Shown piece after piece: positions 8,638 to 35,846 of a stretch of 51,184 bases of DNA. Each line of letters opens with the position of its first letter. The first letter of the stretch is position 1. The notes below the pieces were generated by a model that had not been told where the DNA came from, searched no databases, and saw nothing but the letters and a program-made list of their open reading frames with translations. A program made the position numbers and the translations under genes. The DNA comes from a virus (taxonomy: Duplodnaviria; Heunggongvirae; Uroviricota; Caudoviricetes), in IMG/VR virus record IMGVR_UViG_2585427745_000020, one strand, 5' to 3'.

Positions 8638-10746
8638 TTACTCCCGATCCATTCCGCTTAGCGATGCCACAATCCCAACCCTCGCTAAGCGCTGAAACTC
8701 TTCGTTTCCGACGGTATCACGTATCGCTTTTACAGCAGCTTTATTTGCCATAAATCTGCGTTCAGCCGCCGCTAATGCACCATCACTTGCCCCAACCTTA
8801 ACTGCCTTTGTTGCCTCTTGAACAGCCTTTTCAATAGCGTAACGACCACTGCGAGATGCAGCTAACTTTTCTATCGTCCCTTTAGCTATAGATCCAGAAA
8901 TAGCCCCCACAACACCGCCAACAATCCCTCCACCAGTGGTACCAACAATAGCCCCTGATGTTGAATTGCCTATTGCATTGAGAACTGTCATGACAGCTTT
9001 TGGCAGTCCTTGCTCAAGAGAGTTAATTGCCGGTATAGAGCGCCCCGTATGCTCTACATATCGCAGTGGTCTGGTTGCTGCTCTGGCAAGGTCGCTGTAT
9101 GCCCTAGCAATCTTACCCATTTCTGGCGAGTGCTTGCTAATGGCAGTAATATTCTGCGGCGTAAGGATCGACGCTATATGGAATACGCCAGCAGACTCTG
9201 ATTTACCGCCACGCACCCCTTGCGATACCGCATCTTGTAATATTGATGCAATTGCTGGAGATCGCTCAGACTCTGGCAGTGCGCCAATAATCTGATGAAA
9301 CTTTCCTGTCCCACTTTTTGATGAATTTTGCAAGGCTTTAATACCATCAGTGACTAACTGATCAGTTGCAAGGTTTCTAAACGCAGCTTCAGCCTGTTCT
9401 TGTGCTGTAAATCTTGCTTTTGACAGATCATTAGCTTTTTGCCAGTCATCAAGAAAACCGCCATTTTGAGCCATTATGCGCATATCTTCCGTTGCTGCAT
9501 CACGAAGCTCCGCCATGCGCCTTGCCGTATTTGCCTCACCAGACCTTATATACTTCTGCTCAGCGTCAGCAAGTTTACTTCGCCATGCCTTCATGGCATC
9601 AAACGTGATTCCTTTTTTACCAGTTTTAGCATAAGCAGATGCAAATTGTTTCATCTCAGGAGTTAGCGGCATACCAGCCAAAATATCACCCTGAATTGTA
9701 GCGTTCAGGTTTGACATTCTGGCCTTTGCGTCAGGCATCGTGGAGCGGACGCTATCCCATGCTGCCTTTTCTGAGTTCTTCATTTTATCAATACTTGCTA
9801 AAACTCTTTGTTTTATGGCTGCACTTTTTTCTGATGCAGAGCCAGCCTCAGCACCAAGTTCATCAAGTGCTGAGTGGAATTTCGACTGTATTTCACTAAA
9901 AGCCCTAGTATGTGCATCCTGAACAATTCCTGGTTCGGATGCCAATATCCCTTCGGCTTGTGCAATTCCACGACTTCCAGATCGCATTCCTGGTGTTAAT
10001 GCGTTTATATCAATTCCAGCAGACTCAGCCGCTTTTGCTACATCTTCGGACACATTAGCGGCCTGACTGGCAATTGACTGACGCCCAGCACCTGACTTTG
10101 CCATCCTGGAAACATCATTAGCAGAATTCAGTGCTGCACCACCAAGAGCCTGTGAAACCCTTGGCGCAATAACGCGCCCGACACCTGAAAGAACGCCTTG
10201 AGCACCAATATTGATACCACCGTTAATGGCAGCATTTTGTGCAAAATCACCCTCCTGATTTGCAGCATCAGCAAGAGAACCGGCAATCATGTTTCCTGCG
10301 GAACCGATGTCTCCTGCGAGCTTTGCTGGCGCTCCAGCAGCTTTTGCCGCTGTGCCAATTGGCAGGAGATACCCACCAATTGTTTCACCGGCTTGCGCGT
10401 AAGGGTCTGTCGGTCGATCGACTGGACGATAGACATCATCCAAAACCTTGGGGCCACCAAGCCCCTGGCTGATTGCATTAATCAGACTTGCGCCACCCTG
10501 CAATACGTCAAATGGTATGTTTACCAGACCACGGCCAGCCTGTTCTGCAATTTGCCCTGCGCTTTGACCACCAGTGAGCCAGTCAGTAGCTTTTCCCACC
10601 AGAGATTGTTCTTCTGGCTGCGATTGGTTTTGAGTGGATTGATCACCAGAAGACAGCATCTGAGCAATGCGACGTGCTCCCTCAGTATCGCCGGCAGCAT
10701 CAGCATTCCTTAACGCCGTCATCAACTGTTCACGACTATAGGCCAT
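8638..10746 (-). CDS. Internal/ejection protein (P22 gp16-position)
   Basis: 702 aa Gly/Ala-rich protein at the end of the virion operon, in P22 gene order. Confidence 0.7.
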
Positions 10747-31349: not shown

Positions 31350-32223
31350 GAACTTTCAGGTAGGTATTGTCGTTAAGCAGGAAATCAAATCCCTTTTTGT
31401 GCCAGACGGTTCCGCGTTGATGGTTTGGGCGTTCTTCGAACATCCATCGGCAATTTTCGCCTACGTAGCTCAAATAATTTCTCCAGTCCTGCATCGTGAA
31501 CCCATGCCCGTCAAGCTGGCGGGTTATCACTCCGGCTTTGCGCCAGAACGTTCGGATCTGGTTTTTACGCTTGTCATTCAGTGCGCGGATTCTTGGCGCT
31601 TCAGGAAGGATTTCGTGGTAAGCATCGACAACATCCTGACAGCTAACGGAAGGTTTTTTCTTGTCAGACTTTTTGTCTGCTGTGGCACTCTCTAATACGT
31701 CAGTATTAGAGATAATATTATTATATTCTTTATCTGTGGTAATTTGCTGGTAATCTGCTGGTACAGTATTGCTTGCAGGCATTGGTATTGCTGGCTTTGA
31801 GGTGGTAATTTGCTGGTAATCTGCTGGTACAAAATTTGACTGATAATCGTCATATTTCTCTACCGAGAAAACTGAGAATTTACCGTGTGAAACCCAGTCA
31901 ATCATGCCGAGTTTTTTGAACTTTCTAAGCAGGTACTGAACGCGATCTGGTTTGAGTCCTGTTTCAAACGCCAGAGAGTTTCTACCGCCAAGTAGCTTCC
32001 CTCTGCCTACCAGAATTTCTCCTGCGTCAGTCATTACATACTCAGGCGTATGCTTTGCTTTGAGGATTAAGTGAACCCACAGATGCGCAGCTTCTGCGTC
32101 CTTGTAAAACGGCACATCCATAATTTTACGGTGCAGCAAGGCATACCCCTTACCGCTGCTTTGATGCGGTTGTTGTAGCCTTCTGGCCTCTCTGGCTTCG
32201 GCTAGATTAGATATGTTACTCAT
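31324..32223 (-). CDS. Replication initiator (lambda O-type, origin inside the gene)
   Basis: 299 aa; position downstream of cII and upstream of the helicase; contains the peptide repeat [10 protein letters not shown] encoded by the iterons. Confidence 0.75.
31738..31831. repeat. Origin iterons (two 28-bp direct repeats GGTAATTTGCTGGTAATCTGCTGGTACA)
   Basis: Repeats at 31738-31765 and 31804-31831, each with TGCTGGTA sub-repeats, inside the initiator gene and next to an AT-rich stretch (31700-31735). Confidence 0.6.
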
Positions 32224-33121: not shown

Positions 33122-33781
33122 ATGAAAATGAAATGGTATGAACTGGCTAGATCCAGAATGAAAGAGCTCGGCATAACTCAAGAGAAGTTAGCTGAAGAGC
33201 TTGGTATGACGCAGGGTGGAATTGGTCACTGGTTGCGCGGATCTCGTCATCCATCTCTTGACGAGATTGGTGTGGTGTTTAAATACCTTGGTATTGATAA
33301 CGTCTCATTCAACCACGACGGTACATTTTCACCTGTTGGCGAATACTCATCTGCCCCCGTTAAAAAACAATATGAGTACCCTGTTTTTTCTCATGTTCAG
33401 GCCGGGATGTTCTCGCCTGAGCTTAGAACCTTTACCAAAGGTGATGCGGAGAGATGGGTCAGCACAACCAAAAAAGCCAGTGATTGTGCGTTCTGGCTTG
33501 AAGTTGAAGGTAATTCCATGACCGCGCCAACAGGATCCAAGCCAAGCTTTCCTGACGGGATGTTAATTCTCGTTGACCCTGAGCAGGCTGTTGAGCCAGG
33601 TGATTTCTGCATAGCCAGACTTGGTGGTGACGAGTTTACCTTCAAGAAACTGATCAGGGATAGCGGTCAGGTGTTCCTACAGCCACTAAACCCGCAATAT
33701 CCAATGATCCCATGCAATGATAGCTGTTCCGTTGTAGGGAAAGTTATCGCCAGCCAGTGGCCTGAAGAGACATTTAGTTAA
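33122..33781 (+). CDS. cI: CI prophage repressor (HTH N-terminus, S24 autopeptidase C-terminus)
   Basis: 219 aa from MKMKWYELA...; C-terminal half near-identical to lambda CI ([21 protein letters not shown]...), N-terminal DNA-binding domain different. Confidence 0.85.
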
Positions 33782-33906: not shown

Positions 33907-33935
33907 TTGACTCGATAAAGTACAAATCGTACTAT
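33907..33935 (+). promoter_or_regulatory. PL-like early-left promoter
   Basis: -35 TTGACT (33907-33912), 17-nt spacer, -10 TACTAT (33930-33935), upstream of nutL and N. Confidence 0.6.
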
Positions 33936-33975: not shown

Positions 33976-34006
33976 GGCTCTTAAAAATTAAGCCCTGAAG
34001 AAGGGC
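33976..34006 (+). promoter_or_regulatory. nutL (boxA GCTCTTAAAAATTA + boxB GCCCTGAAGAAGGGC)
   Basis: Near-exact match to lambda nutL; boxB hairpin at 33992-34006. Confidence 0.85.
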
Positions 34007-34116
34007 AGCATTCAAAGCAGAAAGCTTTGAGTAGCGCGAAATGCAGCTGCAAGACAGCAACCGTGGAGATAAGCATCACGGCGCGTTACTCAAAGCTAAC
34101 TGACAGGAGAATCCAG

Positions 34117-34443
34117 ATGGATGCACAAACACGCCGCCGCGAACGTCGCGCAGAGAAACAGGCTCAATGGAAAGCAGCAAACCCCCTGTTGGTTGGGGTA
34201 AGCGCAAAACCAGTTAACCGCCCTATTCTCTCGCTGAATCGCAAACCGAAATCACGAGTAGAAAGCGCACTGAATCCGATAGACCTTACGGTGCTGGCTG
34301 AATACCACGAACAGATTGAAAGCAACCTGCAACGTATTGAGCGCAAGAATCAGCGCACATGGTACAGCAAGCCACGCAGTGAAATGGGTGTGACTTGTGT
34401 TGGTCGCCAGAAAATGAAATTAGGCAGCAAACCACTTATTTAA
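34117..34443 (+). CDS. N: Antiterminator N
   Basis: 108 aa from MDAQTRRRERRAEKQAQWKAANPLLVGVSAKPVNRPIL... matching lambda N; RBS AGGAGA at 34105-34110. Confidence 0.9.
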   Translation: MDAQTRRRERRAEKQAQWKAANPLLVGVSAKPVNRPILSLNRKPKSRVESALNPIDLTVLAEYHEQIESNLQRIERKNQRTWYSKPRSEMGVTCVGRQKMKLGSKPLI

Positions 34444-34451
34444 GGTGATAT

Positions 34452-34703
34452 ATGGAGTTTCATGAAAGTGCGATTTATGATTTTCGCGCTAACGCAAATT
34501 CAGTAAAACCACAGCCAATTGCAGTTCTTTTTAAAACAATGGGTGCGTGGGCTGTTTTATGCTTCGCCGCTGATGACACTGACGCAAGAATGGCAATAGG
34601 CCAAGAGATGGAGATGGACCCGACAAACGATGAATTCATAATTTATGGCGCTCCATCTAATTACTTACTTGATACCTGCAACATTTACAACAAGGCTGCC
34701 TGA
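34452..34703 (+). CDS. Hypothetical protein after N (ral position)
   Basis: 83 aa; begins 9 nt after the N stop; no recognised motif. Confidence 0.5.
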   Translation: MEFHESAIYDFRANANSVKPQPIAVLFKTMGAWAVLCFAADDTDARMAIGQEMEMDPTNDEFIIYGAPSNYLLDTCNIYNKAA

Positions 34704-34839
34704 TGGTGGCCTTCATTTTTGGCATAAACAACAGAATAAATACTGCACTGTGTATTCATTCCAACGAGTGAATACACGGAGCAATGTCGCTCGTAACTAA
34801 ACAGGAGCCGACTTGTTCTGATTATTGGAAATCTTCTTT

Positions 34840-34866
34840 GCCCTCCAGTGTGAGGGCATTTTTTTG
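34840..34866 (+). terminator. Rho-independent terminator (tL1-like)
   Basis: Hairpin GCCCTC-CAGTGT-GAGGGC (34840-34857) followed by ATTTTTTT. Confidence 0.6.
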
Positions 34867-34877
34867 ATGGAGGATAT

Positions 34878-35846
34878 ATGAGTGAAGTAACAGATTTAGT
34901 TGTTATTGAAAAAGCAAATGCAATGACTGTATTTCAGTCTGCAGACCAGATTGAAGAAATCCTTCAAAAGGTTGAACGTGAAGTTATGTCCTTTGTGCCT
35001 GATATCACAACGGCAAAGGGCAGAAAGGAGATCGCTTCTCTGGCGTATAAAGTTGCGCAGACGAAAACATATCTCGACGGTCTTGGCAAAGACCTTGTTG
35101 CTGAACTGAAGGAAATTCCAAAGCTAATTGATGCCAACCGCAAGACAGTGCGCGATCGCCTTGATGAACTGAAAGCCAAGGCGCGCCAGCCTCTTACTGA
35201 TTATGAGGAGGAGCAGGCACGGATTAAAGCCGAAGAAGAAGCTAAGGCAGCAGCTGAAGCTCTCGCAAAGCAAATTGAGTCTGACCATGAAATAGCGATT
35301 TTGATGGATCGCGAATTTGACCGCCAAAGAGAAGAGGCAAGACTCAAAGCGGAGCAGGAAAAGCGAGAGCATGAAGAACGCTTAAAAAGAGAAGCTGAAG
35401 AGAAAGCCAGAGCAGAAGCCGAAGCAAAGGCAAAAGCCGAAATTGAAGCAGCAGCAAGGCGAGAAGCAGAAGCTAAGGCCGCAGCGGAACGTGCAGAGCG
35501 TGAACGCATTGAAGCCGAGCAACGAGCACAGCGCGAAGCAAAAGAGGCAGCAGAACGAGCTGAAAGAGAAAAGCAGGCGGCAATTGAAGCAGAACGCCGA
35601 AAAGCACAGGAGGAGGCTGAACGAATCCGGCGCGAGGCTGAAGCAAAAGAGCAAGCCAGAATAGCAGAAGAAAAAAGAATCAAGGAAGAAGAAGAGCGTA
35701 GAGCAAAGGATAAAGCTCACCGGAAAGAAGTAAATAACAAAATACTTGCTGACCTTATCAAGGTTGGTGCATCAGAAGATGTTGCTAAAAATATCATAAC
35801 AGCCATCGTAAAAGGCGAAGTATTCGCAACAAAAATAACCTACTAA
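34878..35846 (+). CDS. Charged coiled-coil protein with extreme Ala/Glu/Lys/Arg low-complexity core
   Basis: 322 aa; strong RBS GGAGGA (34869-34874); globular N-terminus (about 110 aa), about 170 aa of AEAKAKAEIEAAARREAEAKAAAERAERE-type repeats, short C-terminal domain. Confidence 0.6.
   Translation: MSEVTDLVVIEKANAMTVFQSADQIEEILQKVEREVMSFVPDITTAKGRKEIASLAYKVAQTKTYLDGLGKDLVAELKEIPKLIDANRKTVRDRLDELKAKARQPLTDYEEEQARIKAEEEAKAAAEALAKQIESDHEIAILMDREFDRQREEARLKAEQEKREHEERLKREAEEKARAEAEAKAKAEIEAAARREAEAKAAAERAERERIEAEQRAQREAKEAAERAEREKQAAIEAERRKAQEEAERIRREAEAKEQARIAEEKRIKEEEERRAKDKAHRKEVNNKILADLIKVGASEDVAKNIITAIVKGEVFATKITY

Follow-up and report, generated by a model that had tools for sequence, protein, structure and literature searches.

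A conserved RNA hairpin directly upstream of the phage small RNA PreS, a candidate element for its excision from pL read-through transcripts

Bacteriophage lambda encodes an Hfq-bound small RNA (sRNA), LPR1, since renamed PreS, in the spacer between ral and ea10 (Silverman et al., bioRxiv 10.1101/2024.10.31.621285). According to that preprint, Hfq binding, expression in the lytic cycle, and activation of dnaN have been shown for lambda PreS, which is made only upon derepression of pL, activates dnaN and represses alaS via a seed in the middle of the RNA, and appears on northern blots as a species of ~88 nucleotides (nt) accompanied by a stronger processed form of ~68 nt. Its 3' end is equated there with the terminator tL2a, and Table S5 of the preprint gives LPR1 as cloned and transcribed from GAGCAATGTCGCTCGTAACT to ...GAGGGCGATTTTTTA, exactly 88 nt. 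PreS was one of the earliest phage sRNAs for which reprogramming of an essential function of the host (DnaN) was demonstrated, and its making from the pL transcript is undescribed. In this study, we analyzed the corresponding locus in a 51,184-nt stretch of DNA from a virus of the Caudoviricetes (IMG/VR record IMGVR_UViG_2585427745_000020; hereafter, the window), in which an inverted repeat at 34750-34777 directly precedes a PreS homologue. The features of the locus are as follows.

34750-34777, + strand: core of the hairpin formed by the inverted repeat (5' arm, 34750-34761; loop, 34762-34765; 3' arm, 34766-34777)
34779-34866, + strand: PreS/LPR1 homologue of 88 nt with +1 at G34779, placed by the lambda cloning primers, the deletion arms, and alignment
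34814-34830, + strand: core of the PreS seed (nt 36-52), defined by primers P970/P971 of the lambda lpr1-delta-seed deletion and mapped via the alignment
34839-34865, + strand: intrinsic terminator of PreS (stem, 34839-34858; U run, 34859-34865, seven T) from the terminator scan

The lambda ral-ea10 spacer holds the same sequence as the window, and the ungapped alignment without mismatch extends from 34742 to 34857, a span that covers the hairpin, +1, the seed, and the regions that pair with alaS and dnaN. The sRNA of the window starts with GAGCAATGTCGCTCG, as does lambda LPR1, and follows N and a ral-family open reading frame (ORF) on the same strand within the pL operon. Its seed (34814-34830) is the same as in lambda, only the terminator tail differs past 34857, and the Rho-independent terminator with its U tail is intact. 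The start of the LPR1 cloning primer (GAGCAATGTCG...) maps to 34779, and the homology arm of the full lpr1 deletion ends with ...GAATACACG (also given as ...GAGTGAATACACG) at 34778. The primer-defined length of 88 nt agrees with the ~88-nt northern band, and the numbering of the alaS duplex by the lambda authors (nt 42-56 = GAUUAUUGGAAAUCU) fits +1 at 34779, the counterpart of lambda position 34011. With +1 at 34779, a deletion arm that stops at 34778, and a size of 88 nt that leaves the hairpin out, the inverted repeat is not a part of the mature sRNA and ends one base before +1. The first-pass annotation of the window had overlooked that the 88 nt starting at +1 are a known Hfq-dependent sRNA; the terminator that it described as tL1-like is in fact the one with which this sRNA ends, tL2a of the lambda authors. 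In searches with all 4227 families of Rfam 15, nothing was found at this locus, either at the gathering threshold on the whole window or at permissive E-values on 34400-34950, where the best score, that of RyhB, was terminator-driven (20.9 bits versus a threshold of 55).

The two arms of the inverted repeat, GTGTATTCA (34750-34758) and TGAATACAC (34769-34777), are exact reverse complements with a gap of 10 nt, precisely as first annotated. The pairing in the + strand RNA is longer and gives a stem of 12 base pairs (bp) between 34750-34761 and 34766-34777, including one U.G pair, that is closed by the 4-nt loop CAAC (34762-34765). U34749.G34778 forms a 13th rung, beyond which the pairing runs past an A.A mismatch out to 34744-34783. 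The core folds with -15.7 kcal/mol (z = -7.3), and none of the 200 shuffled sequences was as stable. A lone perfect 9-nt inverted repeat is not significant, as the window holds 15 of them (gap of 3-20) compared with 4.1 ± 2.4 in Markov-1 simulations; that this repeat is not due to chance follows from the comparative evidence across PreS-like loci presented below. Other perfect 9-nt inverted repeats of the window include those at 8655-8692, 31689-31712, and 33241-33267. For three of the stem classes defined below, folding was compared between the strands, and the + strand folds better in all three because of G.U pairs (class 1, -15.7 versus -13.1 kcal/mol; class 2, -12.4 versus -9.4 kcal/mol; class 3, -12.7 versus -11.0 kcal/mol). 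This advantage fits an RNA element of the pL transcript and speaks against a DNA palindrome. We conclude that the inverted repeat is a genuine RNA hairpin on the pL-transcribed (+) strand.

PreS-like loci were collected with a search pattern that required the 19-nt 5' segment of the sRNA. A hairpin of 11-13 rungs that ends 0-1 nt before +1 is present in 253 of the 254 loci, and the sole match lacking it (L265) is a chance hit of the 19-mer in front of a body of unrelated sequence. By stem sequence, at least five unrelated classes can be told apart; they share one frame, GCAC-(stem-loop)-(0-1 nt)-GAGC, and reassort with at least four sRNA body types. Class 1, which is that of the window, has a fixed stem and a variable loop (CAAC, CAGU, CAAU, CAGC, CGGU, CGUU, CGAU, or UUCU). 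Class 2, which is found in five loci whose homology to the window breaks at +1, is UAUAGCAGAUU-UACG-AGUCUGCUAUG and ends 1 nt before GAGCAAUG; it is carried by the named phages mEp043, mEp213, and APC_JM3.2, is present at 71 places in Escherichia coli genomes, and shows a compensatory flip from GCAGA/UCUGC to GCUGA/UCAGC (A-U to U-A). The 19-nt segment, GAGCAAU(A/G)UCGCUCGUAAC, heads several divergent sRNA bodies, to which an 87%-identity match in Salmonella phage As3 provided the lead. The commonest of them, type B (..CUCGUUCUGGUUAAUCGAAAAAUCA..), is ~105 nt long with its own terminator, occurs in the P22-like Salmonella phages BTP1, ES18, ST64T, and ST160, and belongs to no Rfam family. The remaining types carry ..GGUUAUUGGAGAAUC.. 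or ..GGUUAGAUUGAGAAAUC.., and none of the body types is in Rfam. Representative divergent bodies are located as follows.

L228, 6117-6222: divergent sRNA body of type B
L211, 741-850: divergent sRNA body of the phage As3 type

The body types differ in their seed regions and terminators, and different seeds imply different targets. Covariation was assessed in an alignment of 23 distinct arms-only constructs in register, consisting of the frame and the 11 bottom rungs on each side; L205 was left out, as a 1-nt deletion shifts its register. In this alignment, 93.2% of the cells are paired, compared with 66.4 ± 1.8% in shuffles, and the covariation score is 0.663, compared with 0.168 ± 0.023; neither value was reached in any of the 500 shuffles. 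When the 3' partners were slid by 1-3 columns as a control, 22-56% of the cells were paired. Nine of the 14 pairs vary on both sides. The structure of the hairpin is conserved while the sequence of its stem is replaced.

The coupling of the hairpin to the sRNA is strict. In IMG/VR, hairpins of classes 1 and 2, the only two tested, were never found without the sRNA downstream, and scans for the lambda-type PreS 5' end with neither class before it returned only point mutants of class 1. Further stem classes appeared solely with divergent sRNA types. Among 5,426 complete E. coli genomes, the 40-nt hairpin is present at 2,886 places and the sRNA body at 3,183 places in 2,228 genomes; ~40% of the genomes hold at least one copy, Stx phages included. 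Upstream homology to the window was traced in 141 PreS-bearing loci from IMG/VR and GTDB genomes. The breakpoints vary, with 33 loci breaking at 34745, just 5' of the hairpin, and 5 exactly at 34779, and the hairpin is found behind at least 14 upstream contexts that are unrelated to one another. The stop codon of an unrelated ORF touches the hairpin in several of them (...GAATAA followed directly by GCAC...), with no terminator or promoter in between. The similarity downstream stops directly after the terminator, and the gene that follows varies between phages. The promoter scan gave no site between 34643 and 34779, and no promoter is conserved upstream, because the contexts are unrelated and some place a stop codon against the hairpin. 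From the varied breakpoints upstream and the end of similarity at the terminator, it follows that the segment of hairpin, sRNA, and terminator (~34745-34866) acts as a cassette without a promoter, whose transcription comes from read-through of whichever gene lies upstream. The initial suggestion that the repeat controls the 322-amino acid gene downstream in the lysogen is unsupported, since the lambda sRNA is made only on pL derepression and the hairpin travels with the sRNA, while the downstream gene varies.

Several further observations concern the cassette. Unrelated upstream ORFs, for example in L099, L151, L093, and L211, share the end junction (A/G/T)GCGAATAA directly followed by GCAC, so that the 5' edge of the cassette seems to give the last Glu codon and the stop codon to whichever gene recombined upstream. 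Predicted precursors also show the GCGA of this junction paired to UCGC (+9 to +12 of the sRNA). The matches from a scan of genome contigs with an 18-mer from the seed were mostly due to chance or, in unrelated taxa, to likely contamination with lambda. Perfect lambda-type PreS sequences on short, low-coverage contigs of Pseudoxanthomonas, Bradyrhizobium, Kitasatospora, and Arthrobacter (L005, L016, L022, L037, L064, L067, etc.) look like lambda DNA contamination of the assemblies.

With a probability of roughly 55%, we propose that the hairpin is a processing or boundary element for excising PreS from pL read-through RNA, with RNase III as the favored nuclease. The first-pass annotation had suggested an RNA hairpin that affects processing; the hairpin is upheld by the shuffles and the covariation, and processing is the best-supported reading of it, in which the cut at the hairpin foot, its dependence on the hairpin, and the identity of the nuclease are steps that we infer. 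As there is no upstream promoter and the lambda sRNA needs pL activity, the 5' end of PreS would be generated by cutting a longer transcript. The structure expected in that transcript is the following.

34740-34787, + strand: predicted precursor helix of 22 rungs (20 pairs and two 1x1 mismatches; RNAfold) that encloses the hairpin and PreS nt +1 to +9

The predicted helix has an energy of -22.8 kcal/mol (z = -6.0) and, in both the window and lambda, is composed in order of the 13-rung hairpin, a C-G pair containing +1, the A.A mismatch, three pairs, a mismatch, and three pairs; class 2 has 29 rungs instead of 22. PreS nucleotides +1, +3, and +4, and often more, are predicted to pair with upstream bases in 12 of the 14 contexts. 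RNase III accommodates a duplex of ~22 bp, which it cuts in a staggered manner near the centre, and by the rule of Altuvia et al. the two rungs between its cuts are well paired with at least one G-C. The rungs between the would-be cuts in class 1 are U.G and G-C, which fits this rule. The 3'-arm base of predicted rung 14 (rung 13 in class 2) is +1, compared with rung 13 expected for a centred RNase III dimer, a difference of no more than 1 nt, with +1 itself not nucleotide-resolved. A predicted helix of ~22 rungs with +1 inside it is what favors RNase III.

In the mechanism that we envisage, the pL transcript would read through the upstream genes into the hairpin, the sRNA, and the terminator, and the GCAC of the frame (34745-34748) would pair with GAGC (+1 to +4), lengthening the hairpin to the ~22-rung helix. 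An endonuclease would then cut between 34778 and 34779, where the 3' arm of the hairpin has its foot, freeing the 88-nt sRNA, which would later be trimmed to ~68 nt, and the upstream messenger RNA (mRNA) would keep a 3'-terminal hairpin that guards against 3' exonucleases. RNase III, the favored candidate, would nick the helix once, beside its A.A and U.G irregularities; T7 R1.1-type sites are likewise cut on the 3' side only, so that the hairpin stays on the upstream mRNA. In the predicted fold of the mature 88-nt sRNA, a short duplex between nt 1-6 (GAGCAA) and nt 35-40 (UUGUUC) is located at the 5' edge of the seed; in the precursor, the upstream flank is instead the partner of nt 1-9. Loss of the first ~20 nt, as in the 68-nt form, would free the seed in this model, and processing may thus govern the accessibility of the seed.

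Several points weigh against excision by RNase III at the hairpin. Classes 2-5 miss the rule of Altuvia et al., having a C.U or U.C mismatch and then U.G between the would-be cuts. With 12-13 bp, the upper stem taken by itself is short for an RNase III substrate, and irregularities interrupt the lower helix. The position of +1 rests on cloning primers, read coverage, and northern size rather than on 5' rapid amplification of cDNA ends and is possibly 1-2 nt off. As to the comparative evidence, the 23 rows of the covariation alignment stem from about five lineages and do not count as 23 independent events, and their register was taken from the hairpin of each sequence itself, which favors pairing. 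The class 1 stem is nearly invariant, possibly owing to recent horizontal spread, and its few substitutions are uninformative, about half of them being pair-preserving, as chance predicts. The preprint and a 2025 review are silent on the nuclease, the precursor, and the 5' phosphorylation state of PreS, and a literature search on nuclease processing between ral and ea10 found nothing.

The chief alternative, which we consider rather unlikely, is that the hairpin serves only as an insulator or stabilizer and that RNase E or G, or the conserved 5' segment of the sRNA, sets the 5' end. The hairpin would then shield the 3' end of the upstream mRNA (ral etc.), stop 5'-to-3' scanning by RNase E, and prevent mispairing between upstream sequence and the seed. 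Insulation would be useful to a cassette found behind at least 14 unrelated genes, and the location of the hairpin straight after a stop codon in some contexts resembles that of a stabilizer in a 3' untranslated region. The first 19 nt of the sRNA, conserved across body types under a search pattern that required this 19-mer, may hold a determinant of cleavage. In addition, the site of trimming from 88 to 68 nt (~34799, UAACU/AAAC, the slash marking the cut) lies in an A/U-rich single-stranded stretch, which is typical for RNase E. On the other hand, the sequence at +1 (CACG/GAGCA; UAUGU/GAGCA in class 2) lacks the A/U-rich signature of RNase E with U at +2 (motif RN/WUU), and +1 is predicted to be base-paired rather than single-stranded in 12 of the 14 contexts. 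The distance of 0-1 nt from the hairpin foot to +1, which is kept over five unrelated stems, also exceeds what an insulator needs.

We consider it very improbable that the element acts at the DNA level, either as an operator-like palindrome for a phage or host protein or as a cruciform-prone boundary that promotes modular recombination. Its arms are perfect 9-mers, and phage homology breakpoints gather at both edges of the hairpin, at 34745 (33 loci) and 34779 (5 loci), but selection for an intact RNA cassette accounts equally well for such breakpoints. No half-site is conserved among the five unrelated stems that occupy the slot, several rungs are G.U in the + strand RNA and hence mismatches in DNA and in the - strand RNA, and no protein gene travels together with a given hairpin allele. 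The protein-binding site of the first-pass annotation is accordingly unlikely, since unrelated stems replace one another at this position. A promoter of its own for PreS, overlapping or preceding the hairpin, deserves equally little weight; the hairpin would then belong to promoter or operator DNA or, in a primary transcript of greater length, be the 5' stem-loop. Many sRNAs have such a promoter, and a weak -35-like TTGGCA (34719-34724) and A/T-rich hexamers before the hairpin can be discerned by eye; however, the scan is empty between 34643 and 34779, coding sequence replaces 34715-34744 in many contexts (the 33 loci that break at 34745), and classes 2-5 were found by inspection to lack a -10-like hexamer at the right distance. 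Moreover, lambda LPR1 is absent in lysogens and appears with pL derepression, and the RNAs reported in the preprint are ~88 and ~68 nt rather than ~120 nt long. It is just as hard to credit that the hairpin has no function of its own and hitchhikes with the sRNA. The near-invariance of class 1, whose spread is possibly recent, would agree with this idea, whereas the unrelated hairpins at the same position and distance from +1, the compensatory flip, and the variable loops on fixed stems are hard to reconcile with it.

Returning to excision at the hairpin foot, we tentatively extend it to the whole family, a generalization that we consider less likely than not. The hairpin may be the portable recognition element of a promoter-less sRNA cassette consisting of a fixed frame, an interchangeable stem-loop of 11-13 bp, the 19-nt 5' segment, a variable seed and body, and a terminator. 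Such a cassette would let lambdoid and P22-like phages release Hfq sRNAs with different targets, namely PreS and three or more relatives not yet described, out of whichever early-left read-through transcript contains it, with the foot of the hairpin as the site of an RNase III-type cut. If so, the diversity of stem alleles might itself be selected, for example, by limiting recombination or cross-pairing between coresident prophages. The sRNA PreS is already known; the literature searched seems to contain no description of its strict coupling to the hairpin, of the conservation of structure despite replaced stem sequences, or of the broader set of PreS-like cassettes with other seeds. In E. coli and Salmonella phages (BTP1, ES18, ST64T, As3, and others), the frame described above accompanies several sRNA bodies that differ in their seed regions. 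This sequence comparison points to PreS as part of a larger family, so far unannotated, in which the host targets may vary from member to member. The hairpin at the 5' boundary of PreS offers a concrete and mutable candidate for a biogenesis signal. For genome annotation, the element is missing from Rfam and from the RefSeq annotation of these loci.

The + strand of the window is the counterpart here of the lambda leftward early operon, and the early region is closest to those of HK633, HK106, and HK022. The repeat had been assigned at first to the early-left leader; in fact pL, the nutL boxB, N, and the ral-family ORF are all upstream of it. The neighboring features are as follows.

33122-33781: cI-type repressor with HTH_3 and Peptidase_S24 domains
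33907-33935, + strand: pL-like promoter (TTGACT-17-TACTAT; promoter scan and sequence), the source of the hairpin-bearing transcript
33992-34006, + strand: nutL boxB, GCCCTGAAGAAGGGC, read directly from the sequence and also detected as a hairpin
34117-34443, + strand: antiterminator N gene (Pfam PF11438, N36, E = 1.5e-26)
34452-34703, + strand: ral-family ORF of 83 amino acids, upstream of the cassette (ORF list and PGAP homologue names)
34692-34719, + strand: first terminator-like hairpin (34692-34713) plus T run, over the ral stop codon (terminator scan)
34878-35846, + strand: ORF of 322 amino acids downstream, outside the cassette (ORF list)

The equivalent of the pL-like promoter is labeled "similar to lambda PL" in the mEp234 record, and the sequence at 33992-34006 is the same as the nutL boxB of lambda. 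Homologues of the 83-amino acid ORF are named "antirestriction Ral family protein" by PGAP, and Pfam searches gave no match for either this ORF or the 322-amino acid ORF. The latter is very rich in E/K/A/R, is called "TolA" in some phage records, and takes the place of ea10 downstream. The mEp234 annotation describes the equivalent of 34692-34719 as a rho-independent terminator; this terminator-like hairpin accompanies the cassette in some contexts only and is missing where the homology breaks at 34745. It and the PreS terminator are both candidates for the classical tL2a of lambda. Between the first terminator-like hairpin and the repeat lies an A-rich spacer, GGCATAAACAACAGAATAAATAC (34721-34743), which is kept in many, but not all, PreS contexts and contains AAC-AAC-AGA triplets of the (A-R-N) type linked to binding by the distal face of Hfq. 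Elsewhere in the window, the Rfam sar RNA (RF00262, 63.6 bits), the antisense RNA of the P22 immI/ant region, was found at 6298-6364 on the + strand, and the window is therefore a mosaic of the lambda/P22 type. A transfer RNA for Arg (anticodon CCT; 1009-1083, + strand) near the start of the window may represent bacterial flank or the neighborhood of the attachment site of a prophage.

Other identities were considered for the repeat or the sRNA and rejected. The stem of the repeat is A/U-rich and is followed by GGAGCAAUG, and the terminator scan lists it on neither strand as an intrinsic terminator. It is not a nut site or boxB, having a 12-bp stem with a CAAC loop in contrast to the 5-bp stem with a purine-rich pentaloop, preceded by boxA, of such sites, and the real nutL boxB is at 33992-34006. 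A sigma-70 promoter of the sRNA was dismissed, as the scan gave no site and the upstream sequence is not conserved across contexts, and so was a protein-binding DNA palindrome (operator), with five unrelated stems interchanging and some rungs being G.U only. No match to a LexA- or Fur-type box was seen by eye. AgvB and AsxR (Tree et al. 2014) are located at the PR' moron site, and the Pas sRNAs (Zhu et al. 2026) near the lysis and structural genes, not at this locus. The EcOnc Hfq-CRAC list of strain Sakai has no entry at the Sp5 PreS locus (1254537-1254720), in a screen that excluded sites within 100 bp of genes and used uninduced lysogens, so that this absence carries no information. In that list, EcOnc15 lies between Q and stx1A, and EcOnc20 (Tree et al. 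2014) is the pL/nutL leader upstream of N, mapping to the pL/nutL-to-N leader of an Stx2 prophage (L208, Sakai Sp5, 1255628-1255753, - strand), which suggests that Hfq binds this leader in lysogens. KilS of the Rac prophage is a positional analogue only, of unrelated sequence. As Rac, the K-12 prophage that was scanned, has no member of the family, the RNase III cleavage maps of K-12 are not applicable via Rac.

Among the described systems, KilS (Rac, E. coli K-12 b4833) is likewise an sRNA annotated at the analogous place of a leftward early operon, upstream of kilR, but it has no sequence similarity to PreS, and the 5' motif of the family occurs nowhere in Rac. The sequence before KilS (GCTCTCGCTGTAGGGGTA...CCACCGAAGCC; L337, 9406-9503, - strand) resembles that upstream of the PreS hairpin in L092 (TCTCGCTGTAGGGGTACACGAGAACCACCGAGCC), and this likeness may reflect an RNA element shared by early operons of the HK022/Rac type. 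AgvB/AsxR and the Pas sRNAs of enterohemorrhagic and enteropathogenic E. coli prophages resemble PreS in being Hfq-associated, in their conserved lambdoid positions, and in combining conserved and variable targeting parts; they differ in location (the PR' moron, lysis, or structural regions), in sequence, and in having their own promoters, and the Rfam models of AgvB and AsxR gave no match at the PreS locus. DicF, from the dicB operon of the Qin prophage, is also an sRNA without its own promoter that endonucleases excise from a polycistronic prophage operon of the early type, with RNase E generating its 5' end and either RNase III or termination its 3' end. It is unrelated to PreS in sequence, and the 3' end of PreS is an intrinsic terminator.

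The RNase III hairpins of phages, such as the T7 R1.1-type sites and those of the lambda N leader and sib, are parallels in that an irregular hairpin, here predicted to have ~22 rungs, lies in a long early transcript and in that the putative cut is on the 3' side beside non-Watson-Crick rungs, leaving the hairpin on the upstream RNA. The present element differs from them in its short and irregular lower helix, in the failure of classes 2-5 to show the preferred paired rungs, and in a cleavage that is proposed from the predicted structure. In lambda itself, the full deletion of LPR1/PreS made by the authors begins 1 nt past the inverted repeat, which is not discussed in the available portions of the preprint. 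The downstream gene is ea10 in lambda and the 322-amino acid ORF in the window, and the last bases of the terminator tail differ; in both, the sRNA occupies the same locus downstream of ral in the pL operon and ends with the same type of terminator.

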